Source: a virus. Taken from it: 64,000 bases of DNA. Positions 435-24,030 of the stretch are shown piece after piece; position 1 is the first letter of the stretch, and every line of letters begins with the position of its first letter. Both the position numbers and the translations under genes were made by a program. The stretch lies in the IMG/VR virus record IMGVR_UViG_3300005274_000001, positions 93,226-157,225 of that record, one strand, 5' to 3'. Under the pieces are notes generated by a model. That model did no database searches. It was not told the origin of the DNA and worked only from the letters and a program-made list of their open reading frames with translations.

Positions 435-608
435 ATGGAAATTTACTACAAGCTAAAAGGTAAATTTGATTTTGGGTATTTTATTAAGATTAAGTTTGAT
501 GCAAAAAATTTGTTTTTTGTTAGCGCAACAAATCTTGAAGAAAAATTTTGCGAAATAAAAAACACTCTACTTCTTGATAATATTCAAATTTCTTATAAAC
601 TCCTCTAA
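435..608 (+). CDS. Small hypothetical protein (57 aa), leaderless
   Basis: Track ORF 417..608 restarted at ATG435, 6 nt after an extended -10 box. Overlaps the 3' end of the tape-measure-like gene convergently by 42 nt. Confidence 0.45.
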   Translation: MEIYYKLKGKFDFGYFIKIKFDAKNLFFVSATNLEEKFCEIKNTLLLDNIQISYKLL

Positions 609-3600
609 AGGAACTGAAGAAATACTTCCTTCTACAATAATCACATGTGTTCCTCTAACTCCAGAAGATGTTTGTAAAGAAGGTGTTGTAGTAGTAGTAG
701 ACGAAGCAATAGAAACACTAGAAGAAGTAGTAGTTGAAGGAATGTTTTCAATATTTCTTCTCATTTCATCAATGATTCTCTTTGATTCGGGGCTTAGATT
801 GAGATACTTGTAAAGAAAATCAGTTCCTCCTTCTATAGCTTCAGATGTTAGATTTATTATTCCTTTTCCTAGGGGCTCACTAAGTTTTAGTGTGATTGCA
901 GCTAGAGTAGTGATGTTTTTATTTAGACTTACGACTGCTTGAGAGTTTTCTTTAAAAGTGTCAATAAGAAGTTGGAAAGAAGAATTTAATACATCTAATT
1001 GCTTAGCGAAAACTTCATCTGGTGTCTTTGTAGTTGGCATTCCTTTTCCTAGCTCTGTTTCTACAATCCTTCTAGCTCTTGTAATATCACCAGTAATAGA
1101 AGCTGCGATTAGTGTTCTAAACACTTCTGGAGAAATGTTAGTAAGACCTAAGACTTGCTGCATTATAGGAATTAAAAAATTCTCTGCTTGCGCTGTAAAT
1201 CTTCCTCCAGTAAACTGACTAACTAATCCAGTTTCTATAGAAAGTCTTCTTAAAACTTGAATTAAGTTTTCAGGAGTAGCACCTCTTTGTAAATCTAAAG
1301 GCGTTAAGCCTGCACGAATACCAATTCCTAAAGCTATAGGATTTCCACTTAAGCCGCTTCTAATAAATTCGTTAAAAGTAGAAACAGCTTGTTGAACTAT
1401 TTCAGGATTTCTTTCAGCTAATCTAGCGATTTGATAATTTGAAAAATTGCGCAAAACAGTTTGCGCTGCTAAGAAAGTATTAAAGTAATCATAAGGATTC
1501 AATCCTTGTCTAATAGCAATTGAAGTAGAAGCGTTAATCAAAGCTTCACTAAAAGCTTTAGTAAACGCTGAATACTCACTTCCTACTAAGAAAGCTCCTC
1601 TTATTGCTCTTCTTTCATCTATTAACGCTCTTCTAGAAGTAGCTACAAGATTAACAGCCTCAGCTATAGATGTGCCAAATAAGTTTGCTACTCTAGCGCT
1701 ATTTAATAAAGCAGAAGAAAAATTATCTACACTTCTACTTAATCCGCCGATAGATGCAAATAATCTAGCTGATGTACCTAGATATTCTTCAGGTGAAAAT
1801 CCTTGATTTACAGGAAATACTCTTCCTCCAAAAGTAAATTGTCTAGAAACACTAGCTACATCTCCTCCTAACTGCTCACGAATTTGCTGAGGAAGAAGTC
1901 TTATTTGTGTAAAGCGACTATAAAAAGTATCATAAGCTTTATTTACGCTCTGCAAATAGAAATCAGTAAGAAACGCTGCTGAACCTGCTAGAACACCTGC
2001 GCCTACACTAGCTGCTGATGTAGCTATGTTTCTTCCTACTATATTGTTAGCAGATAAAGAAGCTGCTATACCTAGTGAACCTACTGAAGTTGCTGCTAAG
2101 TTTGTAGCAATAGAAAATTGATTTAGATTTTTTGAGGCTTCAAAAATATATTGTTTAACTTCTTCTCTTTCTCTAGGAGGAAAAAGTCTATCTAAAAGTA
2201 AATTAGTTCCTACACCTGCTGCTACGCCAAGTATAGGATTAAAAATTCCTGCGATAGCGCTTACTGCGAAAGATGCACCTGTTTTTAAGATATTTTCAAT
2301 AGTAAAAGTTCTTCTTAATCCTTCACCTAAATCTCCAGCTTCTAAAGTATTTAGAACAGCGTCTAAGCCTATGCCAAATAAAGCACCTGTTGCACCTACT
2401 CTTAAACCTCTAGAAAGGTTTGTAGGAGTTCTACTAGTAGTAGGTCTATTCGTAGGAACAGGTGTAGGAGTCCTGTTAGTAGGAGGAGGTGTTGTTGTAG
2501 GAATTCTATTTAGAGGAGGAAAGTTTCTAGCTAACAAATTATCTACTGCGTTAAATACATTTGTGCCTATTAGGAAACCTTGTCTAAGTGAAGAAGCAAA
2601 TATATCTACAAAAGGATTTCTTGTTGTTGAAAAAATGTAATCGAATTCTCTAAATGAGAAATTTTTTAATGCGCTAAAAAGTTCTCTTAGTTCTTTGTTT
2701 GCTTCGTTTCTTATCTTTAATTCTTCTGCGTATAGTTGTGTTAGAGATTTGAGGTAGTTAAATCTTTCTTCTTGAAGTCTTGCTACTTCTTCTGGTGATT
2801 GAGCTTTTTGTAGGTTTTCATTTACTCTATTTAATTGCGCAATAAAGTTTGACCTAGCTATGTTTATAGCGTTTAGTGATTCGTTATAGAATTCGCTTAG
2901 AGTTCTAGATAAAAATACTTCTCTTTCGCTTCTAAAAATTCTTTCAGATAAAGGAAGTTGATTTCTGGTTGTTTTTGCGAGTTCAAAAAGACTTCTAAAT
3001 TCTGAAAAAGCTTTTTGTGCACCAGTTTGTCTTAGGTCAAAATAATTAGAAAGAAAATCTCTATCTAAATCACCTGAAGCTTCTAGATAGTATACAGTTA
3101 TAGGAAACTTTTCAATCGCTCTTCTATAAAATGCACCTAAAGCGATATCTTGTAGTGTTTTATCTTGCGCTCTTAAGTCTTGAAGTTTTAAATCAGCTAT
3201 AAATTTTTCTATTGCGCTTCTAAATTCTTTTAGGTTTAATGAAGCTATACTTAGTGCTTTAGGAAGTTGTTGTGATAATTCTTCAACAAAGTTTCTTCCT
3301 GTAGCTTGAGATAAAAGATTTAAGTTTTCTATCTGTTGTCTTATTGAAGAAATAAAGTTTTGTAGTTCACCTAAATCTCTAGCATAAGGTACTGATAGAC
3401 CTCTCGCTCTTCTAGCTGAAGAAACGCTGTATTCTAATTGTTGTAGAGTTTCAATTAGCTGTTGTGTGTTTCTAGCTGTAGCTCTTATTGTTGCTGATAA
3501 AATTTGCGAAAATGTTCCTGTTTCTGAGCCTAGAAGTTCTTCTATTGAACCTCTAGACTTTATTAGGTTTCTTAGCTCACCTAAGATTTCTTTTGTGCTT

Positions 3601-3620
3601 TCATCTCTGTCTTCAGGCAT
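567..3620 (-). CDS. Tail tape-measure-like protein (1017 aa)
   Basis: Long helical, Ala/Gly/Ser-rich protein with no Cys or Trp. Glycine-rich hydrophobic segments (GATGALFGIGL, ILGVAAGVG), a coiled-coil N-terminus and a Pro/Thr linker. Lies in the tail region. Confidence 0.65.
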   Translation of the reverse strand: MPEDRDESTKEILGELRNLIKSRGSIEELLGSETGTFSQILSATIRATARNTQQLIETLQQLEYSVSSARRARGLSVPYARDLGELQNFISSIRQQIENLNLLSQATGRNFVEELSQQLPKALSIASLNLKEFRSAIEKFIADLKLQDLRAQDKTLQDIALGAFYRRAIEKFPITVYYLEASGDLDRDFLSNYFDLRQTGAQKAFSEFRSLFELAKTTRNQLPLSERIFRSEREVFLSRTLSEFYNESLNAINIARSNFIAQLNRVNENLQKAQSPEEVARLQEERFNYLKSLTQLYAEELKIRNEANKELRELFSALKNFSFREFDYIFSTTRNPFVDIFASSLRQGFLIGTNVFNAVDNLLARNFPPLNRIPTTTPPPTNRTPTPVPTNRPTTSRTPTNLSRGLRVGATGALFGIGLDAVLNTLEAGDLGEGLRRTFTIENILKTGASFAVSAIAGIFNPILGVAAGVGTNLLLDRLFPPREREEVKQYIFEASKNLNQFSIATNLAATSVGSLGIAASLSANNIVGRNIATSAASVGAGVLAGSAAFLTDFYLQSVNKAYDTFYSRFTQIRLLPQQIREQLGGDVASVSRQFTFGGRVFPVNQGFSPEEYLGTSARLFASIGGLSRSVDNFSSALLNSARVANLFGTSIAEAVNLVATSRRALIDERRAIRGAFLVGSEYSAFTKAFSEALINASTSIAIRQGLNPYDYFNTFLAAQTVLRNFSNYQIARLAERNPEIVQQAVSTFNEFIRSGLSGNPIALGIGIRAGLTPLDLQRGATPENLIQVLRRLSIETGLVSQFTGGRFTAQAENFLIPIMQQVLGLTNISPEVFRTLIAASITGDITRARRIVETELGKGMPTTKTPDEVFAKQLDVLNSSFQLLIDTFKENSQAVVSLNKNITTLAAITLKLSEPLGKGIINLTSEAIEGGTDFLYKYLNLSPESKRIIDEMRRNIENIPSTTTSSSVSIASSTTTTTPSLQTSSGVRGTHVIIVEGSISSVPLEEFIRNLNIIKK
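2418..2510 (-). repeat. Pro/Thr-rich imperfect repeat linker (NRIPTTTPPPT-NRTPTPVPT-NRPTTSRTPTN)
   Basis: Visible in the translation; repeated gtagg/gtagga on the + strand. Confidence 0.7.
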
Positions 3621-3636
3621 ATTCTTCTTCTTTTTA

Positions 3637-4161
3637 TTATGCTAGATAAGCTTTGATATTTAGTATTATTGGCAAATTAAATACTCTTTCTATTGCGCCA
3701 ACTAAACTTACTTTTATTGCAAAAGGATAGAAGTCTTGATAATACAAAGTTTCTCTTATTTCTATTGCGTTTCCTTTAAACGCTATGAAGTCTTCTATGT
3801 TTTTTCCTTGAAACTCTAATATTTCTCCATAAGGCGTATAAGATAAATGTGTTTTATTTTTGCCAAAAAAGCTTGTAATAACAACTTCTGATTTGATGTT
3901 TTTTAGCAGGTATAAATCAAATTTGTCTTGGTGAAATTTGTAATCAATATATTGGCTTATTTTAATTTTGTACACATAAAATTCGCTTTCTAATTCGTTG
4001 ACAAAATAGAAAAATCTATATTGAAAATTTCCCAAAATTGAATCCAATTCGTTGAAAGTAAAAGTTAGTTTGTAGGTTTCTTCTGCTAGGTAGCCGCCTA
4101 GCGAATTTTTTCTTTCTGAGTTTCTTATCTTTAGTGGGAAAATAAGATTGCTTGAAAACAT
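3637..4161 (-). CDS. Hypothetical protein (tail/baseplate region)
   Basis: 174 aa ORF co-oriented with its neighbours; TAAAAT 8 nt upstream of the ATG. Confidence 0.7.
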   Translation of the reverse strand: MFSSNLIFPLKIRNSERKNSLGGYLAEETYKLTFTFNELDSILGNFQYRFFYFVNELESEFYVYKIKISQYIDYKFHQDKFDLYLLKNIKSEVVITSFFGKNKTHLSYTPYGEILEFQGKNIEDFIAFKGNAIEIRETLYYQDFYPFAIKVSLVGAIERVFNLPIILNIKAYLA

Positions 4162-4175
4162 AATCTTTTATTTTA

Positions 4176-5216
4176 TTATTGCACAGAGAAACAAATTTGC
4201 ATTGGCGTTGAGCTTCTTTTAGTGTTAAAGCTAGGACACAAGCTTTGTGTTACTGGACTATATACCTTATTTTGACCAAAACTCTTTAGAAAATTTAGAG
4301 GCTCAATGTAACCATAATACTTTGCGTAAGAGCCTCCATAAAAGATTTCATCTGAGGTAGCTTGAGTATATGGATTATTTTTTCCGAAAAAATTCCAGGG
4401 CTCACTTGGATCCATGAAGGAGGATATGTAATACTTATAGTCTATGCAGTATTGCGTTAAGGATGTTGTGTTTTTTAGTGTGTCGTACAGAATTGCTGCT
4501 ATATAAGCTAAATTTAGTCCTTTATCTTTGTACATGTTTCTTGGATAGTTTTTGGGAAAATTTGAGTAAATATTTTTTAGCGTGGTTTCAAAGTGAAGGT
4601 GAGATGTACTATTGCATTTGTATTCTCCTATTGAAGCTATTCTTTCTCCCGCCTTGACTTTTTTTCCAATGCTTACTTCTGGAACGACATGACCATAAAG
4701 CGCATAAAAAATTTTATTTTGACATCTATGTTCTATTGCTACAAAACCAGAACAATCACAAGATGCGCTACAAAATTGTCTACTAGCGTTGATTACAACG
4801 CCATCGGTTACTGCATATACAGGAAGTCCTAAATCTTGATTTCCTGAACCATAATTTATATCAACGCCTGGATGAAATGAAATGTATTTAAAATTTGACT
4901 TGTCAATCAACTTTGCTCTATCTGATAAAATCTTCCCTCTAGAGAAGTTTAGTTTTTGTGGATTTGTGTTGACTATGAATTCCAAAAGAAGAATTCTATT
5001 TTTTATAGAGGCCAAATCTTGTGGTAAATTTGGATAATTCTGTTTAAAGGAAGAATAGTTCAATTCATAAGATTGTATTAAAGAAGTTATGTCAAACAAA
5101 ATTTTTTGTTCTTGTTGCGTAAAAAATTTTTGATTAGGGTAAGGTTCGCCATAGTTTGTAGTTATGGTTATTGGCGATAAAGAACAATTTATTGGAAAAT
5201 AAACTCTTTGCTCCAT
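4176..5216 (-). CDS. M23-family Zn metallopeptidase (peptidoglycan hydrolase)
   Basis: HxGxD motif (FHPGVDI), PVYAVTDGVV, YGH and HLH (SHLHFE). Confidence 0.9.
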   Translation of the reverse strand: MEQRVYFPINCSLSPITITTNYGEPYPNQKFFTQQEQKILFDITSLIQSYELNYSSFKQNYPNLPQDLASIKNRILLLEFIVNTNPQKLNFSRGKILSDRAKLIDKSNFKYISFHPGVDINYGSGNQDLGLPVYAVTDGVVINASRQFCSASCDCSGFVAIEHRCQNKIFYALYGHVVPEVSIGKKVKAGERIASIGEYKCNSTSHLHFETTLKNIYSNFPKNYPRNMYKDKGLNLAYIAAILYDTLKNTTSLTQYCIDYKYYISSFMDPSEPWNFFGKNNPYTQATSDEIFYGGSYAKYYGYIEPLNFLKSFGQNKVYSPVTQSLCPSFNTKRSSTPMQICFSVQ

Positions 5217-5220
5217 AGCT

Positions 5221-6171
5221 TTACCAAGCAGTCATTACTGGTCTGTAATAAGGAGATAGTAGTTCTCTTAATCTTTCTTTGTATTCGTTATATAGATTTT
5301 CATAAAGAAGGCCATTGTTACCAAAGGAAGCATTGAAGCCTTCTATGCCAAAAGATCTAAGTCCTGCTGTTAAATTTGCAGATATAGCTAATATGAATTG
5401 CATTGCAGTTCTTATTGCTACTGCTTCTAGCAAATCATAGGGCGGATCTGTGTAACCAAATTCGTAATCAATTACTATAACTTGAGGAATTCTAGGTGCA
5501 ATTGGACCATATTGCGAACCCCAAAGTGGGTCTTGAGAAGTTGTTTGCGATAGAATTCTAGCCATTACAGCAGGAAATATGTGTATTTCTCCGGTTCTGT
5601 AGAAGTAGAATTCATTTGGTTTATACAACCTAAAGAATAAATTTTTTCCTTCGTACCCTGGAGGAGCTGTAAACGCTAAGGCTAGAGAGTAAACAGTTAT
5701 TATTGGAGCGTAATAGGTAATGATTAGTGGTGTTCCTTTTCCGTCTTGTCTTTCGGCATCGCCAATTTTATTTGGAGCAACACGAATGTTTGAAACCCAT
5801 TGGTTTAATTGGTCATTTGTTAAGAGATCAAAAGGCAGAGATCCAGGAACATAAAAACTAGGATTATTTCCATAAAGATTTTTTTGCGCCGCCGTTAAAT
5901 CTTCCCACTTGGGAAACTGATAAAAGTTTTCATTTATAGCATCCTTGTATTTGGCCCTGTTTTCGTAAGCTTCTCTAGGTGTTTTTGGAAGATTAGTAAA
6001 TCTAGCTGGTGTTAGAGAAGTTCTCAATCTGTTTTCTATATATTGTGCAGACCTTTCTATCTCTCTTTCTAAATATTGTTGAACTTCAGGTGTAATTTCG
6101 GGCATTAAAACGCCCTCTACCTTGTCTAAAAGTATTTGAAATATGTCTTGTTTTACTTTTTCTGTAAGCAT
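5221..6171 (-). CDS. Head-tail adaptor/neck-like protein
   Basis: N-terminal helices (IERSAQYIENRL) and C-terminal IDYEFGYTDPPYDLLEAV...LLSPYYR, the Y-x-x-G-Y...P pattern of gp6/gp15-type connectors. Confidence 0.6.
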   Translation of the reverse strand: MLTEKVKQDIFQILLDKVEGVLMPEITPEVQQYLEREIERSAQYIENRLRTSLTPARFTNLPKTPREAYENRAKYKDAINENFYQFPKWEDLTAAQKNLYGNNPSFYVPGSLPFDLLTNDQLNQWVSNIRVAPNKIGDAERQDGKGTPLIITYYAPIITVYSLALAFTAPPGYEGKNLFFRLYKPNEFYFYRTGEIHIFPAVMARILSQTTSQDPLWGSQYGPIAPRIPQVIVIDYEFGYTDPPYDLLEAVAIRTAMQFILAISANLTAGLRSFGIEGFNASFGNNGLLYENLYNEYKERLRELLSPYYRPVMTAW

Positions 6172-11531: not shown

Positions 11532-13922
11532 ATGGCTATAGAGCATTTAAAACAAGTAGAAGTTTATACCTCCGAAACAACGAATGATTCTGTAGATTTA
11601 ACCACTTTTTCTCCTTTAAACATACAAGACGATTTAAATGTAATAAGAACGATATTAAAAAATGTTATTGGCGGAACAAACTTTAAAGATATTGCAAATA
11701 TCTATACATTAAAAAATCTATACACTTGGAGAAACACGCACTTTACTTCTTCGGGATTAAAAGCAACATCTATAGATGTTAGTGTTGTCGCTGATGTAGA
11801 TAATTTCAGCTTTGTTTTATCTAATAACTCGTATTGGCAAAAACTAAAAAGTTTTTCTCAACAATATTTAAATACACAAAACAAAGTTCTTTGGTCTGGT
11901 ATAGCTTATACGACTACTGAGCTTAACAATGCTATAAGTACCTTACCAGTTATTACCTCTCTTCAAACAAATGTTAACAATCTACAAACATCCATCAATT
12001 CTATTCAAACTAATCAATCTATTTTCTTTCAAGAAATTTATGGAACAGTAGTTTCCTCTTCCTCTGGAAACCAGCCAATTTTGGATAGATTGTCTAATTT
12101 AGAAGCTAAAGTTAGTAACCTTGAAGTTGTTTCTGACTATGGTAATTATATAAATGTAATAAGCACAGAAATTTATGGCTACTCTCCTCCTCCCTCCTCT
12201 CCAGTAGGAACAGATTCAATACTTACAAGACTTAATACAGTTGAAAGCGATATAAATTCTCTACAAAATAACATTGGTCAAATTCCTCAAATTCAATCCG
12301 ACTTGCAAAGCTTACAGAACAAAGTAGGATATTTTGACTATAACGATTATTTAAATACTATTAGCGAAATAAACACAAATATAAACTTTTTAAGTTTTGT
12401 TTCTCAATTTGGAGTTAAAGAGAAATTATTCCTAGACATAGGAAAACTAAAGGTATTGGACCTAGATAAAACAATAAGAAACTTCATTGAGTTGCAACCT
12501 GCTCCCGACATTGTAAACCTTTTAAATTCGCTAAAAGAAAACAACATAGGAGAAGTGTTTCTTTTATACAGGTATATAAATCTAGTTAACTCTTCAAACA
12601 TTACACTAATTGAAAAAATAAAAGAGATTCTTAACACCCTGTCTTATTCTAATAGCCTAGATAAACTCCCTAAACTAACTGTTCTAATCGTGCTAAACAG
12701 CTCTACCATATTAGATGAAACTGTTCTCTACTCTCAATTACCCCAACTTGTTGCCAAACTTCTTCCTTATGTTGATGTTGCTCTTCAAATAGAAGAAAGT
12801 TTCAATGTTTGGACGGATTCAACATATTCTTCCACAACAACCGTTTCTTTAGAGGAAATTATTAATCAAATAGAAAACACAATAAAGTACATTTACGAAC
12901 AAGAAAAACCAGTAAAGGTGTTTACAAACAATCCCAAGTTAGTTTTATCTAGGTTTGGAATGTATAACTTAGAAGTCTTCTCTCCAGTACAATTTTATTG
13001 GCCGCATTCCATAAATGGTTTCAATGTAAAAATTGATAAAGTTGGCCTATTTGACAACGCCTTTGATGTGAGTTACTTCTGTACACTATTTCCTCCAAAC
13101 GCATCAAACCCATCTTCCGATAACATCTCTTGTGATTTAATTTCTAGTCCAACTTTCCAAGGAGTTACATTTGATCTGTCATTTGATACAAATACAAATG
13201 ACTACACTTCTCCATCAGATGTTCAAAAGCTTTTCTCTGCTATATCAGAGAATATAAAAGTAGAAATTCTTACAAACTATCAGTCTTCTTATACAGTTTT
13301 TTCTCCACTTTCAATAGATGTTTCTGACCCCTCAAACATTCAGCTTCAATTTTCAAGCGTAAAATCTGGTTTTTTTAAATTTTATAGAAAGCTGAAACTA
13401 TTTAACAAGGGTATAAACAACTTCCCAGCAACAGAATCTGATAGACATACAGCAATAGATGAATTTTATGATTATTACTTACTAGACACAATAAATTCTT
13501 CTGCTATAATCTACGAATCAGGGATAAAAGATGCATTGATTTTTGCTACATCTTTAGGAGAGAATTTTGAAATAGAACTATTTATTAATGGTTATGATAT
13601 TTACAATCAATCGTACAACTACATATTAAAGCTTTCCTATGATGCATCTACGGGAGATTTAGCTGGATACGACAGTTCAAATAACGCAATAACTGGGTTT
13701 TCTAAGAACATAGGTACTAGCGGTTTAGGTATTTTTAAGGTGTTTCTTATAAACAACGGTACAGATTTAGATATTTATTTGGGAAGTATATCTGATATTA
13801 CACCTCCAGAATCCCCCAAATACACAATAACAAACATGAATTTTGATGGATCAATCAATATTATTTTGAACTTTACAGGAACTACAAACCTGAAAATAAA
13901 AGTTCTATCAAACGATGTATAA
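11532..13922 (+). CDS. Fibritin/whisker-like structural protein
   Basis: Segmented heptad coiled coil with repeated EIYG...ILxRLxxxE units in the N-terminal third, followed by globular domains. Confidence 0.55.
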   Translation: MAIEHLKQVEVYTSETTNDSVDLTTFSPLNIQDDLNVIRTILKNVIGGTNFKDIANIYTLKNLYTWRNTHFTSSGLKATSIDVSVVADVDNFSFVLSNNSYWQKLKSFSQQYLNTQNKVLWSGIAYTTTELNNAISTLPVITSLQTNVNNLQTSINSIQTNQSIFFQEIYGTVVSSSSGNQPILDRLSNLEAKVSNLEVVSDYGNYINVISTEIYGYSPPPSSPVGTDSILTRLNTVESDINSLQNNIGQIPQIQSDLQSLQNKVGYFDYNDYLNTISEINTNINFLSFVSQFGVKEKLFLDIGKLKVLDLDKTIRNFIELQPAPDIVNLLNSLKENNIGEVFLLYRYINLVNSSNITLIEKIKEILNTLSYSNSLDKLPKLTVLIVLNSSTILDETVLYSQLPQLVAKLLPYVDVALQIEESFNVWTDSTYSSTTTVSLEEIINQIENTIKYIYEQEKPVKVFTNNPKLVLSRFGMYNLEVFSPVQFYWPHSINGFNVKIDKVGLFDNAFDVSYFCTLFPPNASNPSSDNISCDLISSPTFQGVTFDLSFDTNTNDYTSPSDVQKLFSAISENIKVEILTNYQSSYTVFSPLSIDVSDPSNIQLQFSSVKSGFFKFYRKLKLFNKGINNFPATESDRHTAIDEFYDYYLLDTINSSAIIYESGIKDALIFATSLGENFEIELFINGYDIYNQSYNYILKLSYDASTGDLAGYDSSNNAITGFSKNIGTSGLGIFKVFLINNGTDLDIYLGSISDITPPESPKYTITNMNFDGSINIILNFTGTTNLKIKVLSNDV

Positions 13923-14937
13923 GCTAAAGATAAACACCCAACTAGGAACTTTTGAGGGAGTAGACACGAAAGAAGTTCATTTGCCAATTTTTAGCATAAT
14001 TGATGAAGATAATCCTTATCAAGAACTTGAACTTTTGATTGAAACTACTGAGCCACAAAGTTTAGATTATATATATCCGAATACATCGTTATTAATGTTC
14101 AATATTTCTCCTTCCATAACTTTGGAAAATGACTTCTCCCCATTAACATTAGAAGTTTCAATCCAAAACTCAGAAAACCTTCTCGTTATTAACGACAAAA
14201 GAGCGTTTGATGGATATAGTGTTGTTGGAGTAATCTTTTCATCTGATTACGATTTAATTGTAAACTTTGAAAATTCCGACATTTTACGAAGAAAGTTTAT
14301 TCTTGTTCCTTATAAGTTGGGCGCAAATAGTTCATACTCAATAAAAATGAAAATTTATAGAAGCACAGAAGAAGCCCAGTCATCGCTAATAAGAAATAAA
14401 TTCTACGGGTACGAAAAGATATTGTATGATTTTTCAAAGTCTTATTCTGGTGCTTTAGAAACAATAAATAATGTTTCCTTGTCAAAGTTTTATGAAACTT
14501 ACGGAAGAGAACGAAGCTTCTTAGCAATAGACAAAAATGCTTTGATTAACGAAGTTTTCTATCCAAAAGATTTTCTATATATAAACCTCGCAACAAACTC
14601 TATTATGGTTCTTGATGATGGATCTTTAGATTCGTTTATTTTAAACTACGAAAAAAACTTTTTATCAGATTATAGGATAGAAGTAAATACAACTTCGAAA
14701 TTTCCTTATTTAAAGTTCATCAACACACTAAATACGCTAGTTGGAACCTACGAAAACACATCAATTAATACAGAAAACTATTTAAAAGAAGTTTCGAACC
14801 TAGTATTTGCTGAAATGTTAAAACCTTATATTGCAAATTCAGGCTTCTTTCCAATAAATACTTCACAAAACATAAAAGCGCTATCTAGCTTTTTTAGAGA
14901 GAATTCTTCAACACTTGGCTACACTTTCTACAGTTAG
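13915..14937 (+). CDS. Hypothetical structural-module protein
   Basis: 340 aa, overlaps the upstream gene. Confidence 0.7.
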   Translation: MYKLKINTQLGTFEGVDTKEVHLPIFSIIDEDNPYQELELLIETTEPQSLDYIYPNTSLLMFNISPSITLENDFSPLTLEVSIQNSENLLVINDKRAFDGYSVVGVIFSSDYDLIVNFENSDILRRKFILVPYKLGANSSYSIKMKIYRSTEEAQSSLIRNKFYGYEKILYDFSKSYSGALETINNVSLSKFYETYGRERSFLAIDKNALINEVFYPKDFLYINLATNSIMVLDDGSLDSFILNYEKNFLSDYRIEVNTTSKFPYLKFINTLNTLVGTYENTSINTENYLKEVSNLVFAEMLKPYIANSGFFPINTSQNIKALSSFFRENSSTLGYTFYS

Positions 14938-16027
14938 AGAAACTATAGTAAACTATACAACCTTCTCTGGAAACTTACTATCAGAAGAAAGACAAAAACT
15001 TTGGTTCTCAATTTTCTACTTAGAATCAATTTTCTTTGTAGATTTTGTAAATTCGCTTTTGCAAAAGGGTTACATAAGTTCAATCCCTTCAGAAGTTTCG
15101 TCATTAAAAAATACTTTAGATTCCTACATTCAAACATTTTTAGATTTTTCATACTTTCTAAGTAGTCTAAGCATAGTTGAACAAGACTCTCTAGATATAG
15201 ATTTCATATTATCCTTGTTCTTCGTGGTTTACTTATATCATTTATCTGGAAAAAACATCATTCCTTCTGGATCATCGATAATTAAATATCTTGAAGTTTT
15301 TTACGACTATTATATAAAGCTTTCTGAACAGCTATTTTCTGTAAGAACTAACCTCAACCCAAACAAATTTATAAATGATTCCACAGTTTCTATAAATACT
15401 GTGTCAAATAAAGCTATTTTATTGTCTTTGTATTCATCTTTATTCGGTAGAGAAGAGTTTTACATAGACCTGTTAAATAGACTAAGTGCCTACGGTGCAA
15501 CTAATACAAATGTCGAAGAAGGTATAGAATACTACACAATTTCCATAGAGCTTTCTTCTTTATCCTCTGGAACAAGGCAAGCTTTATATAGTCAAAATAC
15601 TGTTATTTTATATCCAGGAAGCGGAAATGATGAAAACTTTCATGGTAAAAATGTCGTCTTAGCTAACTCCTCTCTTAACGAATATTACATATTCTTGCCA
15701 TTCTCTATATTTTCCACAGAAATAAAAGGAAACAAACTTATTTTAAAAGTTAGCAAAAGAAACTACATTGTTAATGATGATAAAAAGTTGGTTCCAAGAT
15801 TTCTTACGCTAGACCTTTCTGTAAACCTAATTAATCTATACACAAAGGTAAATGGGCTATTCATTGACAATAACTACTTCATTTCTAGTGGAGGTAACAA
15901 TCAAATTGATGCAATTGCAAACACATTCGTCTATGATTTCTTGAAGTTCTTACTTTCTGGAAACTTTAACAACAAAGTTTCTCAAAATACAACAAATATA
16001 AAAATTATTTTGACAAACACCTTTTGA
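14915..16027 (+). CDS. Hypothetical structural-module protein
   Basis: 370 aa, TTG start, overlaps the upstream gene. Confidence 0.65.
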   Translation: MATLSTVRETIVNYTTFSGNLLSEERQKLWFSIFYLESIFFVDFVNSLLQKGYISSIPSEVSSLKNTLDSYIQTFLDFSYFLSSLSIVEQDSLDIDFILSLFFVVYLYHLSGKNIIPSGSSIIKYLEVFYDYYIKLSEQLFSVRTNLNPNKFINDSTVSINTVSNKAILLSLYSSLFGREEFYIDLLNRLSAYGATNTNVEEGIEYYTISIELSSLSSGTRQALYSQNTVILYPGSGNDENFHGKNVVLANSSLNEYYIFLPFSIFSTEIKGNKLILKVSKRNYIVNDDKKLVPRFLTLDLSVNLINLYTKVNGLFIDNNYFISSGGNNQIDAIANTFVYDFLKFLLSGNFNNKVSQNTTNIKIILTNTF

Positions 16028-16050: not shown

Positions 16051-16950
16051 ATGGCCGAAAGAACTTTTAAGCTACATTATCCACAAAATACGCTAATCGA
16101 TCCAATGGGATCAATAATTATCAATGTCAATACAACAGCAAACCCTCAGTTTGAATGGGCCTACATAAATTCTTTAAATGGAGTTGGACCAGTTGATCCG
16201 TCAAAAGAGGTCAACATTTCTCTACTAGGTTTTAAAGACACAACATCTTACAAAATAAGGTACCTAGAGAACATTACAAGACACAATAACACTTTGTTGA
16301 CTGTAGGATCAGCAGCTTGTTTAACTAGTCCTGACGCTGTTTCTTGTCAAGGATATGGACCATATATAGTTTTTGGTAAAAGATACTACATAGACTTTAT
16401 TGTTTTATACTTCGTAAACAGAAGCGTAGTACCCCAAGGAGGCAATGAGGCTGACTACTACTTATCTAGCCCGATATTTTCAGTAGATACTTCTAGGTGT
16501 ACACCAGATTACGGAATTTTTATTGCTTCACCAAAACCTAAAACACCAACTAATAATTCCGATCCATATATAGAAGCAACAGCTGGTACTGGTGATAGAA
16601 AGATGTTTACTACGCTACCTTCTTATACTAACGAATTGGGATTCTTTAACCAAAACATAAAATACAGAATAACTGCTCTAAAAAGCGCAAATTCCAACGA
16701 CTACATGGACGATGTTATACTAACTCCAGGAAATATTGTTCAGGCACTACAAAACACTATAAACTACGGCCAAACTAGTATTGTATCTGTAAAAGATGAC
16801 AACACGCCAATAGTATTAAAGCCTCAAGCTAGTAATACTTCTTCATTTAACCCTCAATCATTTTTGCCCTTCATCTTGTTTAGATACATAAGCGTAGATG
16901 CTCCAACAAGACGAGTATTTCTTTCTTTCTCTTTTGCTCCTAACGCATAG
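16051..16950 (+). CDS. Putative virion structural protein
   Basis: 299 aa, beta-rich; leaderless TAAAAT (16039-16044)-6 nt-ATG. Confidence 0.65.
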   Translation: MAERTFKLHYPQNTLIDPMGSIIINVNTTANPQFEWAYINSLNGVGPVDPSKEVNISLLGFKDTTSYKIRYLENITRHNNTLLTVGSAACLTSPDAVSCQGYGPYIVFGKRYYIDFIVLYFVNRSVVPQGGNEADYYLSSPIFSVDTSRCTPDYGIFIASPKPKTPTNNSDPYIEATAGTGDRKMFTTLPSYTNELGFFNQNIKYRITALKSANSNDYMDDVILTPGNIVQALQNTINYGQTSIVSVKDDNTPIVLKPQASNTSSFNPQSFLPFILFRYISVDAPTRRVFLSFSFAPNA

Positions 16951-16955
16951 TAACT

Positions 16956-17306
16956 ATGAACACGATCTATATAGACTTTATAAACAGATTTTTCCCCTCT
17001 ATTGATTTTAGAGGTGCAGTAAATATACTTAATTCTGATTTTCCTGATGGAAATTTAGCAGTTTACAACATAATAAATAGAGAATACCCAACAATCAGAG
17101 ATTGTAATAGGACTCCAACAATGATCTTTCATGGAAATAATGAACAAATAAATTTTAGAATTTCATACGGAATTGTTGTTTCTTCTACAAAAGAAATAAA
17201 TGTTAGCGCAGAAGGAATGATTGACGATAAGCACTTAATAAAGAAGCTATTTGAAAATCTACCTAATTACTTCGCTTCTCTGGAGGAGCAAGAAGATGAA
17301 AATTAG
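16956..17306 (+). CDS. Hypothetical protein
   Basis: 116 aa ORF within the operon. Confidence 0.65.
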   Translation: MNTIYIDFINRFFPSIDFRGAVNILNSDFPDGNLAVYNIINREYPTIRDCNRTPTMIFHGNNEQINFRISYGIVVSSTKEINVSAEGMIDDKHLIKKLFENLPNYFASLEEQEDEN

Positions 17307-18159
17307 CAATGTATTAATCGATAACAATAAAACATTTCCCATTGTGATTTCTCCAGAAGCAAACAATGTTGAAGAAATGAGTAACAAATACTATCTTTAT
17401 GGATTGAACAAATATTTTGGTGTATTACCGATTTCTCTTTATAACGAAAAGGGGCTTATCTCACTATTTGAATTTCTTTCAAATACTTCGAAAACTTTAG
17501 TAGATTTAGCATATTCCTTGGACGAATTAGAAAACAAATACTTTAAAAGTTCCAAAATTACACAAGGAGTAATTGAGGAAACAAGGAGATTTTTTTATCC
17601 AGTATATAACGATGATGTTTTTTCTCTTAAACCAGAACTTTGGGACACGCTTTATAAGTTTTTATACATGTTTTACAAATCTGTTTTGTATGATGGCCTA
17701 AGAATATACATGTCTTACACCCTTACAAAGGTAAACAAGTTTTTTTCGTTTTCAATATTAAAAACAGAGTGTTCTAGCAGTAGTGAAGTAGAGATTAAAT
17801 CCTTCTTTGAAAAAATAAGAAGGGCTTTTTATAAAACCATAGCACCAGACACAAATGATGCTTTAAGAAGTTATCTTCTTTCTTTGACATCAGATGCTTT
17901 TTATATAGAAGATTCAATTTTGCCTAATAAAACAGCTGACTTAAACTTTTATGACGCTTATACAAGTGCATTAAGAGGAGCTACAATAAAACAGCTAAAG
18001 TTAGAAGAGCTTTATCAAAGCTTCAATCAAGAGTTTGATTCATTCTATAGAGGCAAGTTATCTGAAATTTTTTCTCAAAATAATATTTTTTACCAAGAAC
18101 TTGTTAGTATTGTAGGAGGAAGTCTAGCAGATGAATACCTTAAGTTCCTCATCTCCTAA
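17296..18159 (+). CDS. Hypothetical protein
   Basis: Track ORF 17251 restarted at ATG17296 (MKISNV), which follows GGAGGAG. Confidence 0.7.
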   Translation: MKISNVLIDNNKTFPIVISPEANNVEEMSNKYYLYGLNKYFGVLPISLYNEKGLISLFEFLSNTSKTLVDLAYSLDELENKYFKSSKITQGVIEETRRFFYPVYNDDVFSLKPELWDTLYKFLYMFYKSVLYDGLRIYMSYTLTKVNKFFSFSILKTECSSSSEVEIKSFFEKIRRAFYKTIAPDTNDALRSYLLSLTSDAFYIEDSILPNKTADLNFYDAYTSALRGATIKQLKLEELYQSFNQEFDSFYRGKLSEIFSQNNIFYQELVSIVGGSLADEYLKFLIS

Positions 18160-18931
18160 GTTAGTATTTAGCCCTCCTATACCAGGCACTTCAAGGCCTG
18201 AGGAAAGGCAGTTGTCTTTCACCCCTGAACAAGTATCAATAAAAGAAAGAGCATCGCTAAAAGAATTTAACAATACTAAGCTTGCTGCTAAAGATGTTAC
18301 ACAAGCTTTTATACTTTATTGGGAACCGTACTACACAAATGGTTTTATTAACATTCCTTACCGTGATGTATATGCGAAATTCTTAAGAGAGTATGGAAAC
18401 AACATAGAGCCAGAAATAGTTTACAGATATCGTGGACTAGATGTTCTTTTAATGAATGAAACAGATTTTAACAACTTTGAAAATAATGAAATAGCTGTAT
18501 ATTTACCAATTTCAGTTGGAAGATATTTGGTATTAGAAAAGTTTGAGCTTCCTAGGACAATAATAAGCGCACAAAAAGTTTCCCAAGAAGGAAAATTTGT
18601 TTCTGTGTTTACAGAAAACTTTCCTAGATTTTCAATGACATTAAAGGCTGTAATCTTTGGTAGTGTTCATATAAAGACAAAACAATTTTTCGATATTGTA
18701 ATAAAACATATTTCAAACAATAAACCTGGTAGATTGATTCTTTATGATATATTTGGAAATGTAAAAGTATCTCAAGCTGACATCTTTCTAACTTTGCAAT
18801 ATAACAAAACACCTTTCTACCGTCTTCTACCAACAAATGTTTCTTACTCAAGAACTTCATCTGAAAACACATACTTAAACATAGAAATTACTGGTACAGT
18901 CTTAGAAATACACAATGAAAGATATGTTTAG
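18131..18931 (+). CDS. Putative tail tube initiator/baseplate protein
   Basis: C-terminal strand pattern (FSMTLKAVIFG...LILYD...NVSYSR...YLNIEITG) resembles tube-initiator folds; precedes the hub-like gene. Confidence 0.4.
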   Translation: MNTLSSSSPKLVFSPPIPGTSRPEERQLSFTPEQVSIKERASLKEFNNTKLAAKDVTQAFILYWEPYYTNGFINIPYRDVYAKFLREYGNNIEPEIVYRYRGLDVLLMNETDFNNFENNEIAVYLPISVGRYLVLEKFELPRTIISAQKVSQEGKFVSVFTENFPRFSMTLKAVIFGSVHIKTKQFFDIVIKHISNNKPGRLILYDIFGNVKVSQADIFLTLQYNKTPFYRLLPTNVSYSRTSSENTYLNIEITGTVLEIHNERYV

Positions 18932-21900
18932 TTCAGAAACCTTTAAAACATATGCAGTTGTAGTAATTGAATCTCTGTGGCCTTCTAGAGAAGATTATAG
19001 AGGCGAAGGAGAAAATATCGTTTTTAGCAGCGGTGCTAAAAACTATGAGCTACTGAAATTTTCTCCTCTTCAGAGCAAGTATTCTGGTTATTACAAAATA
19101 ATACCGCTAAACATTCTTAGCGTTAATACATCGTTTTCCAAAGAGGGTGGAAATTTTAATATTTCGTTTACAGCAAACAACCTGCTATTTTTATCGGATA
19201 GAGAACTTCCAGACAGGATAAAGAAAATACTGGAATCAACATCAACTAGACTAGAAAACTTTCCTATAGACCAATTTCCCTTTTTAGAAAAGGTTTTGGT
19301 TGGCAATGACAAGTTAAGAGTTGGTTACATAACAAACTACAATGTTATATCTCAATTTATAAGAGAACTGGATACTGTTTCAATCTATTTGGTGAATATA
19401 AAAGAAAATCTTTCAAACGATTTACTTCCTCTGTATATCGGTAAAAATCCTGGAAGGACAAAACAAGCTGAAGCAGCTCAATTAGCAGACAAAAAGAACA
19501 AAATTTTGGTTTCTCTCGGTATATCAAAAAAATGAATTGAAGTTTGTAGACGATGTTTTAAAGAGCAAAGACTTAAAAAACATGCTGTTTTACTACAGAA
19601 AATTTAGCTATCCTCTCATAATTAATAGATTCTTCAAGGCGTTAAACATTCATCTGTTTTCTCTTAATTCCGAATTTAGAAATAAAATTTATCAACAAGA
19701 ATTGAATAACGCAGAAACAGAGGACATAGAAAACTTTATAAATTTGTTTGGAAGAACGATTTTTGAGTACTACTTTAAGGATAGGAACGCTAGAAAGCAG
19801 ATTAAATCTTGTATTGAATCTTACTATAAAGCAAATTCTGTTTTGAGCAAGTTAATTTCATGGACCGCTTTTGAAACTTTACGGCTAAAGTTAAATGAAT
19901 CTTTAGGCGTTTCTCCAGGTCTTTGCTTTTCTAGGAATTCCAAGGTAGAAGAAGAAAGAAAATTTAAAACAATACTAAATGCCATAGTTATTGACAATTT
20001 CCTCTACGAATATGCAAACAAAGTTTTGGGGTCTGAAAGTCAGGAAGAGCTGGAGTTTGGTATTAATTTTATAAACAATATCTTGGGAAACAACTTGTTC
20101 AGTCTTGAAGATTACTTGTTAGGTATACATAGCCTTCTATCGATATTCGTAAAAGACTTTTACAATACAGAATCAAACACAGAAGAAATAGAAATTAGCG
20201 ATATTCAGGAAGAATTAACTATTAATAATTCTGGTGATGCGCTTAGTCTAGTCTTTCGTGGACATATAACAGACATTTCAAGAAGTGTATCAATAAACGA
20301 AAACTCCTCTGATATAACTATCTCGATAAAAGGAAGAGATTTTAGTCATCCTCTAAGAAATCATGAAGTTTACGCTGACTATACTTCAATAAAATTTGCT
20401 GCACAGCCACTAGAAAACTATTCAGTAAAAATTTTAACACCCGTAGAAGCTGTGCTAAAAATAATGAACTCCTTTGCGCCACAAAAAATAAATATTTTAG
20501 AACTAGATAGAGAAACTTTTTTAACTTCTGTGATTTCCTCTAGAGGATTTGATACCTTTTACAACGCTGGTACACAAAACATACTAATAAATCAAGGAAA
20601 TGTTGTTGCACCTTCTTATGACGCTCAGTTTGACGAGCTTTCAATCTTTACACCTATTCACTACATCAGCTTAGATTTCATACAAATGGTAAAAAATGCC
20701 TTTGATACTGAAGGAATCCTTCAAAAGTTTTTAGCAAATGTCAATGTTGATATTTCTGATGGTCCTCTATTCGATGTTCTAAAAAGAGTTATATCCTCAA
20801 ACTCTGCATATAGAATTTATGTTGATCACCTTGGTTATTTAAAAATAGAATATGAACCAGCACACATATCTTTTCCATTTTCACTAAGTCTTAATAGAGA
20901 AATAGATGACTACTACACATTTTCTATAGAACATTCTTCAAGCGAAAGCAACATAACTACTTTTGTAGAAGTGATACCAAAATCCTTTGGTACCAGCAGT
21001 CCAAGTTCTATGGGTATAGCTTCGCTTTATGGACGAAGCATACCTCCAACAATTCAGGAATTATACTCTACGATTGAATACATAGACAGCAACAAAGATA
21101 AATTTGTTGAATTTCTTTCTGAAGCAGTTAAATTGTTAGATAACAAACTTAAAGACCATCTTATACAAAGAGAGGGCGAATACGAAAAAGAAGTTTTTAA
21201 TGAACTTAACAAATTAAATACCTTTATAAACCAACAAAACAACAATGACTTGTTCTCTGCTCTTCGTGGTCTTACAAAAAAGGAATCTGTATCTCAGCAG
21301 ATATCCTCCATAGATATAGTTACTGAAACCACTTACAGAGAAGATTTTTGTACTGGAGAAAAAATACCAAATACCTCTTACACCATACAAGAATCCACGA
21401 AAACTATACAAACACAAGTTGAGGTTCCAATTAACCTGTTTAAACCGGAAGTTTTATCCAACATATTTAATGTTGGTAGAATAGATGAAAAATTTTTCTA
21501 TACAAATGTAGATCACGAATACTATAAGCTTTTTGCCAAATCTTTTGCTACACTAAATGAATATTATGTAAACAAAATTGCTTTATTAAACGATATCTGT
21601 CCAAAACTTAACGCTATCGCAAGAACAAAGTTTAAACTTTCTTCCTCTGCTAATGTTTGTTTTGAAGAAAACTTAGATGTTTTGTCAAGTCTAATGGTTC
21701 TTGGTGCGAAATTTGAGCTTTACGGAAAAACAGATAGAGAGAACGCTACTTTAGGAAATTTAATTACAAACATAATTAACTCAATTAGAATAAAATCTTC
21801 TGAAAATATTTTCAAGATTAACTTGTCAAAAGTTGATGAAAATAAAAATCAAACAATAAGTTATCTTAAAGACTTTTACGCATATTTTATACCGTTTTCA

Positions 21901-22959
21901 GATATATCTAATGTAGTAAAAAACGAAAACAATATACTCAAGAACCTTTCACCAGACCTGTTTATATACGGCCTAAGAAGAAAAACATTTTCTGATGCTT
22001 TTATATCTGTGGTAGATTCGCTAAGGAATGAAGAAAGGATTTCTGCTAAGCGTGCTGAAATTATAAGAAAGCTAAACTCTAAACCAATAAACACAGCAAA
22101 AGTTTCTGTTTTAGGCCATAATTACTTTGTCGGCTATACTACTCTACTAATAAATGAAAAACTACCTCCACTAAACGATGCCTTTATTTCACAAAAAACT
22201 TTGAACGATATAAATGATGACGCTAAATTCGTCAAAGATAAGGAAAACCTAATCATTTACATCAACGAAAAAGTTTTAACAAAAAGATTTTCAGAAATCT
22301 ACAATAAATTATTGCCGCAAATACCTGGCTATAATCCTCCTTCAAAGGTTGATGAAGAAACAATAATAAACTACTTCACAGAGGGTATTAAGTTTATTCT
22401 TAGTTTTAACTATGACTATGTTCCCTATCAGTATTGGGTACCTCTTTGGGGTGTTTATACCAAAGAAAGCCTAGAAAACATAAATCTAGGAGATTATGTC
22501 AAAATTTTGCTAACTGAGCTTTTGTACCACGTTCCCGAAAAACAGCAAGATTCTTCAGAATATTCTGAACTGCTATTCAGATTTATATCAAACAATCAAC
22601 AATATATGCATATATATCAAGAATATGTAAAACCGCAAAATTACCTAGTAGCTCAAGGACACATAGAAAATGTTGAGCACTCTTGGTCTTTAGGAAGTGT
22701 TTACACCACAAATGTTGGGCTTAACTATCTCCTTCCAGCTATTTATACATACCTTCCACTAGGAAAAAAGAAAATAATTATCGGATATGTGGTTATAGAC
22801 TCTCCCCTTTCCAAGTTCAATGAGTCTGGTCAGTATAACAAGTTCTTGAAAGATGAAGAATTTTTTAAGTACTTTAGACTTTTGAAGCGACTTTATCTGA
22901 ATTTCTACGAAAACGAATTAAATTTCGTAAAAAATAACGCAGTACTAAGTTTACTGTAG
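18915..22959 (+). CDS. Baseplate hub (gp27/gpD-like) protein, split into ORFs 18915-19535 and 19537-22959 by a +1 break at an A7 run
   Basis: Hub-type motifs span both ORFs (ILSVNTSFSKEGGNFNISF; VFRGHITDISRS...ISIKGRDF; IYVDHLGYL; HIENVEHSW...YTTNVGL). Removing one A at 19526-19532 gives one 1347 aa ORF. Confidence 0.6.
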
Positions 22960-22984
22960 GTTGTTGTGGTAGAATAATGAGGAT

Positions 22985-23509
22985 ATGAAGGAAAAACACA
23001 AGACAATGTTAAACTTTGAAGAGGGCGTTCAAAAAAACGAATTTTCGTTTGGTGCTTATAAGTTGGTTGCTAGAGTTCCAACTCTTTTCGAAGAATCTAA
23101 AATTTTTCTTAAGAGGTTCGAGATTTTTAAAAAGTTTTTGAACGAAGATGAAGATTTCAAAAACTATTTTAGCGATATAACTGTAAAAGAGCTGAAAATA
23201 AATGACGAAGGTAAACCAGAAATAGTCGATGTTCCTTTTGATCCCAAAAAGCAAGACCACATTGAACATGTGTTCAACAATTATCTAGGAGAAGAGTACA
23301 GAGAACTTATTAACAGATTAGCCTATCTTGATGTCGTTATAGAAAAAATTTATAGAGGAGAAGAAGAGCTTCGTGGAAAGTTTTCCGATTTATTCTTTTT
23401 CCAGCCAACAAGCGGTCTTCATTTAAGAGAGATATTTAACCTTTCTGAAGAAATTATCAACTGGATTAACTCAGTAAATGAGGTTGACCCTTTTTTGTCA
23501 AAAAATTAA
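22985..23509 (+). CDS. Tail assembly chaperone-like protein (G form, 174 aa)
   Basis: RVPTLFEESKI...LAYLDVVI pattern; ends in stacked slippery heptamers; lies in the tail module. Confidence 0.55.
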   Translation: MKEKHKTMLNFEEGVQKNEFSFGAYKLVARVPTLFEESKIFLKRFEIFKKFLNEDEDFKNYFSDITVKELKINDEGKPEIVDVPFDPKKQDHIEHVFNNYLGEEYRELINRLAYLDVVIEKIYRGEEELRGKFSDLFFFQPTSGLHLREIFNLSEEIINWINSVNEVDPFLSKN

Positions 23510-24030
23510 TATCTGAAGATATTCATCTAAATGCTATAATAAATGCTTACTTCTCTTCATTCTCTGTTCCGGCAATTGATTCGTCAATAAAAGCAGACAT
23601 AAAATCTCTAGCAGAAGGTGGAAGTATTAGTCAGCCTTTATTTCTTCCCCTTTTAAAACCTTATGAAAAATATTTTCCTCTTAATACTCTAACAAAAGGA
23701 AAGCTAAATTTGATTCTTGGAATAGAGTTTTATTTCGGAAGGCAAAAAACTTTGGCGTTATACCTTTTGTCAACAAAAAACAAGAAGCTTAAAGAATTAG
23801 TTGAAGCTGCATCGAGATTAAAGATTTTGAAGGACAAAAGTCTTGGGCTTCACGAAGAGATAGCGGAAAAAGGTTTATCAAAACTGGATGAAATATTGAT
23901 GGAAATCGAAAAGTTAGATATAAAAGTAAAAACGCTTTTAGCAGAAGTTTCTTCTGACAAGTCTTTGCAAAATGAGTTAGGGGTTGGAGGAGAAGAATTG
24001 AAAACTATGATTGAAGAATTTATAGCCTGA
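23488..24030 (+). CDS. -1 frameshift extension (GT form) of the tail chaperone
   Basis: The -1 frame is open for 180 codons from 23488 (right after TGA 23485-23487) to 24030 and contains track ORF 23710..24030, which has only a TTG start with no SD or promoter. Confidence 0.65.
   Translation, partial: PFFVKKLISEDIHLNAIINAYFSSFSVPAIDSSIKADIKSLAEGGSISQPLFLPLLKPYEKYFPLNTLTKGKLNLILGIEFYFGRQKTLALYLLSTKNKKLKELVEAASRLKILKDKSLGLHEEIAEKGLSKLDEILMEIEKLDIKVKTLLAEVSSDKSLQNELGVGGEELKTMIEEFIA

Follow-up and report, generated by a model that had tools for sequence, protein, structure and literature searches.

In tail assembly chaperones of the gpG/gpGT type both products bind the tape-measure protein and the extension of the longer one binds the tube protein; the virion contains neither of them, and the short one is made in great surplus. 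The type is known from phage lambda (Levin et al. 1993; Xu, Hendrix and Duda 2004, as cited in PMC5009743), and its mostly -1 class includes a +1 frameshift, in the tail chaperone of the haloarchaeal myovirus HSTV-2 (PMC5009743). Here we analysed a gene at positions 22985-24030 of a 64,000-nucleotide (nt) stretch of viral DNA, called the window below, which covers bases 93226-157225 of IMG/VR virus record IMGVR_UViG_3300005274_000001 (157,225 nt, with direct terminal repeats). A first-pass annotation had proposed at this place an unannotated programmed frameshift that fuses a 174-amino acid (aa) open reading frame (ORF) to an extension. Comparative sequence data strongly support this proposal, and we conclude from them that the gene carries a conserved, real programmed ribosomal frameshift, predicted to be -1 in this phage. 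Like lambda gpG/gpGT, the gene would give a short and a frameshift-extended product sharing their N-terminal domain, with a slip a few codons before the zero-frame stop, a second frame without a start of its own and an arrangement kept despite low sequence identity. That this is one recoded gene, in which a -1 slip on a U-run leads to a fusion of about 348 aa and the two products form a probable tail assembly chaperone pair, is on balance likely.

Blastn of positions 22000-25000 against phage records returned the Thermus phages phiYS40 and TMA at 89% DNA identity to the window over the full length, and by this measure the window (GC content about 32%) is part of a phiYS40/TMA-like Thermus myophage genome. 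A metagenome scan gave six contigs, L005-L010, whose frames were read from their DNA. The elements of the gene are the following, with positions in the window:

22985..23509, plus strand: zero-frame ORF for the short product of 174 aa, homologue of YS40_159 / TMA_157, PHROG 28485.
23480..23484, plus strand: Shine-Dalgarno (SD)-like GAGGT, shared by the phiYS40 group and L006 but missing in L010 and in the contigs with a +1 arrangement (L007-L009).
23485..23487, plus strand: TGA closing the -1 frame directly 5' of the shift tract, 19 nt before the stop in the window, L005, L006 and L010.
23488..24030, plus strand: -1 frame extension of 180 codons, predicted to be read after the slip, with its TGA stop at 24028-30.
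23488..23497, plus strand: shift tract C CCT TTT / T TTT TTG, at which the -1 slip probably occurs, conserved in the -1 lineages.
23500..23506, plus strand: third heptamer A AAA AAT, which is A AAA AAC in phiYS40, TMA, L005 and L006 and A AAA GAT in L010.
23508..23523, plus strand: AATATC/GATATT hairpin of six A-U-rich pairs.

The zero-frame ORF ends in GAC CCT TTT TTG TCA AAA AAT TAA, with the stop at 23507-09, and heptamers of the X XXY YYZ form of canonical -1 frameshifting stand at the frame junction (C CCT TTT at 23488-94, T TTT TTG at 23491-97 and A AAA AAT at 23500-06). On re-reading the sequence, the coordinates given in the first-pass annotation for the ORF, the heptamers, the TGA, the GAGGT and the hairpin all proved correct. 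The expected fusion has 348 aa, the 174-aa ORF being followed by about 178 more codons. The annotation of relatives covers only the last 70-106 codons of the extension, as a separate gene (YS40_160 / TMA_158, PHROG 32538): in phiYS40 and TMA a 174-aa hypothetical protein (YS40_159 / TMA_157) is followed by a 300-nt gap and a 70-aa hypothetical protein. Around 110 codons are thus missing from the GenBank and RefSeq annotation of both phages, whose real product set would be the 174-aa protein plus the fusion of about 348 aa. We found no mention of a frameshift in phiYS40-like phages in the literature searched.

The open -1 frame is more than chance, because a stretch of 174 open codons has a probability of about 2e-6 at the base composition of the window. 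The window, phiYS40 and TMA align over 22940-24040 with zero indels, and both related Thermus phages keep the -1 frame arrangement. Between the window and phiYS40 we counted 47 synonymous and 11 non-synonymous codon changes in the zero frame of 22985-23487; in the -1 frame the corresponding counts were 18 and 2 for 23510-23709, 15 and 1 for 23710-23817, and 18 and 3 for 23818-24027. In the first of these -1 frame segments, 16 of the 20 substitutions fall at codon position 3 of that frame. The apparent 200-nt gap 23510-23709, which the first-pass annotation had already taken to be coding, is by these counts coding in the -1 frame without a start of its own, and it is conserved at the protein level, with the extension kept across four lineages from its first residues. 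No ATG, GTG or TTG occurs in the -1 frame of the window before codon 75 (TTG at 23710). The codon corresponding to this TTG reads TTA in phiYS40 and TMA, which have their first canonical start at codon 111, and L007 has no canonical start in the frame of the extension (the C-frame) before codon 120. At the distal end, the database copies P0014 and P0015 of the extension (the C-part) run past the TGA (window 24028-24051) as ...EEFI[AS]WDQT..; this readthrough is evidently an annotation artefact of low-GC contigs called with TGA as Trp, and we see no evidence of recoding in it.

To place the gene in its family we used a full HMMER pass of the 174-aa protein (the N-part) against 1.84 billion representative proteins. 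Ten genuine homologue clusters were found (24-92% identity, 159-195 aa), all of them named 'hypothetical protein' and all stopping at the same alignment column. A terminal motif (VDPFLSKN, VDPFFRKKAN, IEPIEVKNS and variants) is present in nine of the ten, and in the tenth, which represents the phiYS40 group, it can be seen in the alignment; the most distant clusters, P0010, P0012 and P0013, have the tails IEPIEVKNS or VNPVELKN. None of the ten clusters is fused to C-part-like sequence, and a search aimed at extended relatives of the C-part came back empty. Scans of IMG/VR with the window protein, P0003, P0004, P0010 and P0013 returned phiYS40 only, and two further contig scans and a phage tblastn added no relative. 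The homologues in clusters P0006 and P0009 come from metagenome-assembled genomes (MAGs) deposited as Thermoproteota and as Aenigmatarchaeota archaeon, and the contigs that carry them measure 137-163 kb; phiYS40-like phage contigs mis-binned into archaeal MAGs from hot springs are the probable explanation. The metagenome contigs read as follows:

L005: N-part 100% identical to the window; site as in the window with AAC; -1; C-frame opens 19 nt before the stop.
L006: N-part 41% identical; GAT CCT TTT TTG TTA AAA AAC TAA; -1; C-frame opens 19 nt before the stop.
L010: N-part 30% identical; GAC CCT TTT TTG TCA AAA GAT TAA; -1; C-frame opens 19 nt before the stop.
L007, L008 and L009: N-part 37-39% identical (L007, L008); GAT CCx TTy TTT CGT ... 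AAT TGA; +1; C-frame opens 26 nt before the stop in L007 and L008 and 62 nt before it in L009, which runs off the contig end.

The split is kept in phiYS40, TMA and five metagenome contigs, in four lineages whose N-parts are 28-41% identical. Conservation of the C-part (27-37% between lineages) is like that of the N-part and begins with its first residues, FFVK[KR]LIxxDI...GIE[FI]Y[FLI]G.... In the nucleotide alignment the +1 group has two extra bases inside the T-run, and the two directions lead to the same junction, DPFF-VK(K/R)LI (the hyphen marks the junction), with DPFF-VKKLISE in the window and, on skipping the C after TTT, DPFF-VKRLIE in the +1 group. Within the overlap of the two frames the C-frame peptide VK[KR]LI is conserved between the groups, whereas the zero-frame tails differ in length and sequence (LSKN vs RKKAN/REKVN). 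The tail of protein P0008, RKEVN followed by the stop, is compatible with a +1 reading at the level of protein sequence.

The site itself is the most conserved DNA of the gene, with 17 of 24 columns invariant among the four lineages vs 21% overall, and 19 of 24 vs 29% within the -1 group. CCT TTT TTG is common to all -1 lineages, preceded by C in the window, phiYS40, TMA, L005 and L010 (C CCT TTT) and by T in L006 (T CCT TTT). The three stacked heptamers described in the first-pass annotation are all present, but the -1 lineages conserve only this T-run site, and the break of A AAA AAT in L010 makes it improbable that this third heptamer is essential. The same annotation had pointed to the GAGGT and to the weak hairpin as possible accessory elements. 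The former would be at most a lineage-specific stimulator, given its distribution; the latter is present in the window but is not conserved, does not fold better than shuffled sequence and would probably melt at the temperatures at which the host grows. Downstream folds were no better than shuffled in the window (z +0.1 to +0.7), phiYS40, L010 and L007, and marginally better in L006 (z -1.7), all z values lying between -1.7 and +1.3. A TTGAC/GTCAA stem flanking the T-run was dismissed, since inspection by eye suggested that L007 does not conserve it. All three contigs of the +1 group have TTT CGT, so that the codon after the slip is always CGT, a rare one (6 of 105 Arg codons in L007 and 4 of 81 in L008). 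At sequence level L007-L009 have the layout of +1 P-site slippage of the prfB / Ty1 type, in which UUU re-pairs to UUC ahead of a slow codon.

In the mechanism that we propose, most ribosomes would stop at 23507-09 and release the 174-aa protein, and a fraction would slip back one base on CCU UUU UUG (23489-97) and read the -1 frame to 24030, giving a fusion of about 348 aa with the junction ...VDPFF-VKKLISEDI.... The slip would most likely be made by tRNA-Pro and tRNA-Phe on C CCU UUU, or by P-site tRNA-Phe alone. The junction peptide should tell the sites apart: EVDPFFVK is expected from CCU UUU or P-site tRNA-Phe, EVDPFLVK from U UUU UUG and DPFLSKNLISEDI from A AAA AAU. The slippery tract would itself be the conserved signal, and no conserved RNA structure or SD-like element would be needed. 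We infer the slip codon, the efficiency of the slip and the ribosome, not RNA polymerase, as the slipping machine. We hold it to be an even call that a 2-base indel in the slippery tract took one homologous gene, which is never found as a single open frame, from one direction of frameshifting to the other (-1 and +1) with its junction unchanged, and that this works at about 65-75 C without an RNA stimulator. Like HSTV-2, the lineage of L007, L008 and L009 appears to use +1; unlike in HSTV-2, a single homologous family would hold both directions here, on one codon and a 2-base indel apart, which, as far as these sequences go, is a new aspect.

We then considered the function of the pair. The AlphaFold (AF2) model of the N-part is confident and has an alpha/beta fold, with a predicted local distance difference test score (pLDDT) of 84 and a predicted template modelling score (pTM) of 0.77; the model of the C-part is all-helical and of low confidence (pLDDT 61), and a search with it recovered only its own orthologues. 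Compared with 48,161 chains, the N-part had YqbN 3klu (Z 4.4), 3fgx (Z 4.0) and the HK97 tail assembly chaperone 2ob9 (Z 4.0) at ranks 2-4, and 2ob9 took rank 1 in a VIA second look at the Foldseek list (Z 4.3, root-mean-square deviation 4.5 A, 88 residues aligned). YqbN we take to be an XkdN-type chaperone of a contractile-tail prophage. The N-domain is thus weakly similar in fold to members of the gpG/gpGT type. Foldseek against BFVD listed many matches named tail assembly or tape-measure chaperone at probability 0.9-1.0, with E values of only 0.01-0.06. The best predicted-structure neighbours are chaperones of large Firmicute myoviruses and of phage G (Bacillus phage JL S5M8F1, 019DV002, Lactobacillus phage LP65 Orf100 and Bacillus phage G gp181/gp182; Foldseek probability 0.98-1.0, template modelling score (TM) 0.38-0.43, E only 0.015-0.04), which are of similar size (115-230 aa) and come from large myoviruses, but have no detectable sequence similarity to the window protein. 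Taken together, the fold matches to tail assembly chaperones, made with models, are weak but recurrent. Atlas gave Phage_TAC_2 only at 0.85, a lead and no more. Foldseek against PDB returned nothing significant for the N-part, and Pfam, the PHROG function labels and PDB sequence and profile searches gave no function for either part. If the pair does act as tail assembly chaperones, the shared N-domain would coat the tape-measure protein and the helical C-extension would recruit the tube protein.

The gene order around the frameshift gene bears on the same question. The genes concerned lie in the window as follows:

567..3620, minus strand: tape-measure-like gene of 1017 aa, YS40_142, PHROG 29223.
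3637..4161, minus strand: 174-aa gene, third gene after the frameshift gene in relatives.
4176..5216, minus strand: M23 peptidase gene, second gene after the frameshift gene in relatives.
5221..6171, minus strand: 316-aa gene, 70-73% identical to relatives, adjoining the frameshift gene on its 3' side in relatives.
16051..17306, plus strand: YS40_154 and YS40_155 homologues, directly upstream of the frameshift gene in relatives.

Language-model features (0.94-0.95) and weak PHROG matches liken the 1017-aa protein to tape-measure clusters. In L006, L007, L008 and L010 a single strand carries the 154-like and 155-like genes, the frameshift gene, a gene of 316-319 aa, the M23 peptidase gene and a gene of about 180 aa, save that the L008 contig ends before this last one; in L010 it is followed on the same strand by a homologue of 970+ aa of the 1017-aa protein, three genes downstream of the frameshift gene. 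In the window three tail-fibre-like genes (17251..22959) stand between the YS40_154/155 homologues and the frameshift gene. As these orders compare, in the phiYS40 group the block 567..6171 is inverted and moved and the three tail-fibre-like genes are inserted upstream of the frameshift gene, so that the odd position of the gene would be a lineage-specific rearrangement. The 316-aa protein is by far the most conserved of the block (70-73%, vs 30-55% for its neighbours) and has a weak 'head-tail adaptor' as its sole PHROG match; because of this conservation it may be a major tail structural protein. PHROG scans of further ORFs of the window returned self-families or replication genes only, PF04984 and PF06841, sought as sheath and tube families, are absent from the genome, and the 299-aa upstream protein was set aside as an Hcp1 candidate, its marginal match (E 0.27) being gone with a profile.

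Several points weigh against reading the gene as a recoded chaperone pair. The frameshift gene of the window lies about 19 kb from the tape-measure-like gene and on the opposite strand, exactly as the first-pass annotation had said. In no contig does it take the canonical place of the gpG/gpGT type, which is between the tube gene and the tape-measure gene and directly upstream of the latter; the same-strand order in the four metagenome relatives explains the odd position in part, but three genes still intervene. Neither a sheath gene nor a tube gene was identified by PHROG scans or Pfam. The fold scores are under the stated noise level of the tool (Z under 5; Foldseek E 0.005-0.06). With E values up to 1 allowed, neither the window protein nor 12 family members match the Pfam Phage_TAC_ families, and no tail-chaperone family was matched in PDB by sequence or by profile; in addition, both parts (174 + 178 aa) are larger than in lambda G/T. 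As to the frameshift itself, no hairpin, pseudoknot or SD-like stimulator of the canonical -1 kind is conserved, U UUU UUG does not belong to the classic A-site slippery codons, the +1 lineage consists of three contigs, two of which are 86-88% identical to each other, and the fusion protein is a sequence-based prediction. We therefore regard a chaperone pair like lambda gpG/gpGT as plausible and unproven. The G/GT label of the first-pass annotation keeps the weak, recurrent fold matches on its side, but lacks the Pfam match and the tape-measure adjacency. By analogy the gene would be a variant of the lambda G/GT theme, membership of which is not established because its position and sequence family do not agree with that type and the fold scores are weak.

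The alternative that survives best accepts the frameshift and gives the pair another role, namely tail fibre, baseplate or hub assembly, or that of a structural or regulatory pair. It would account for a gene that directly follows the tail-fibre-like genes of the window and in no contig adjoins the tape-measure-like gene, it is helped by the weakness of all fold scores, and BFVD also lists baseplate-hub and gp51-like chaperones, though at probability 0.14-0.3. However, the tail-fibre neighbours are specific to the phiYS40 group and absent at this place in the relatives, and tail assembly chaperones lead the fold neighbours in both rank and number. We give a role of this other kind a low but real probability.

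The remaining alternatives concern the split, and the better of them makes two separate proteins of it. Ribosomes would restart after 23507-09 on an Ile codon at the stop and make an unfused C-protein of about 173 aa. In every lineage ATA, ATC or ATT does touch the stop (TAATA in the window, TAATC in L006, ATTGA in L007), and a GTG or ATG stands close to the site in the C-frame of both L008 and L009. These Ile codons are, however, very poor bacterial starts; the C-frame peptide FFVK[KR]L 5' of the stop is conserved across lineages and the zero-frame tail is not; and the 2-base indel between lineages preserves the C-frame reading, with no conserved start codon. Restart is thus highly improbable beside a slip at the conserved tract.

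Very little credence also goes to slippage of RNA polymerase on T6 or A6, which would add a base to some transcripts and produce the fusion by normal translation. Both runs are at the site, and the host genus uses this mechanism in Thermus thermophilus dnaX (PMC5009743), for which the separate tRNA-Lys for AAA and AAG in that species was suggested as a possible reason for slippage over ribosomal frameshifting (PMC5009743). Transcriptional slippage is, however, efficient at runs of about 9 and undetectable at T5C5 without context (Atkins et al. review, PMC5009743), and the T6 and A6 of the window are short of the runs of about 9 or more of the T. thermophilus dnaX type. Moreover, L007 keeps the split at a site (CCTTTCTTTCGTAAAAAGG) without any run above T3 or A5, and L010 breaks the A-run. 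We favour the ribosome as the common mechanism because L007 lacks such runs while the polymerase would need about 9. The likeness to dnaX (-1 ribosomal in E. coli, transcriptional slippage in T. thermophilus) lies in the two products, the homopolymer-rich site and a mechanism that differs by lineage, but in dnaX the shifted product is the shorter one, and neither the SD-like element and hairpin that stimulate E. coli dnaX nor the 9-base run of T. thermophilus dnaX is conserved here.

An assembly or sequencing error, or a recent break in one continuous ORF, has a negligible chance, since despite two other genes of the same record being split by homopolymers one base longer than in phiYS40, the frame arrangement is identical in phiYS40, TMA, L005, L006 and L010 and oppositely shifted in L007-L009, and no fused homologue exists among the 1.84 billion representative proteins, which contradicts the single continuous ORF in relatives that the first-pass annotation had held out as the finding to undo its proposal.

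The two other split genes are observations in their own right. The homologue of YS40_153 (703 aa) is split into 13915..14937 and 14915..16027, with the break near 14889, where the window has AGCTTTTTTAG and phiYS40 AG-TTTCTTGG, one extra base in the T-run; the split may stem from an assembly error or from a real break in the gene, or this tail-fibre gene may be prone to slippage. The same alternatives could apply to the homologue of the 1347-aa YS40_158, split into 18915..19535 and 19537..22959, with the break at 19521-19535 (A7 vs A6 in phiYS40).

One further element lies upstream of the frameshift gene:

22950..22978, plus strand: promoter-like site with a -10-like TAGAATAAT, ending 6 nt 5' of the ATG at 22985; consensus match only.

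This match suggests a putative transcript start with a short leader or none, and its position fits the short-leader and leaderless transcripts reported for Deinococcus-Thermus (PMC12340547). An internal promoter at 23484-23523 was rejected, as no start codon follows it in the -1 frame.

For this deeply divergent thermophilic myovirus group, almost no tail genes are recognisable by sequence. If its function is confirmed, the frameshift gene would encode the first assembly chaperone identified in the group and would anchor the identification of the tape-measure and tube genes. Thermus is the organism most used for ribosome structures, and the gene offers a simple, structure-free slippery site for studies of frameshifting on Thermus ribosomes. 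The -1 and +1 lineages are a natural experiment on the evolution of recoding sites, and the switch between them, if true, would mean selection for a fixed two-product output regardless of the direction of the slip, in a chaperone-like gene that is separable from the tape-measure gene.

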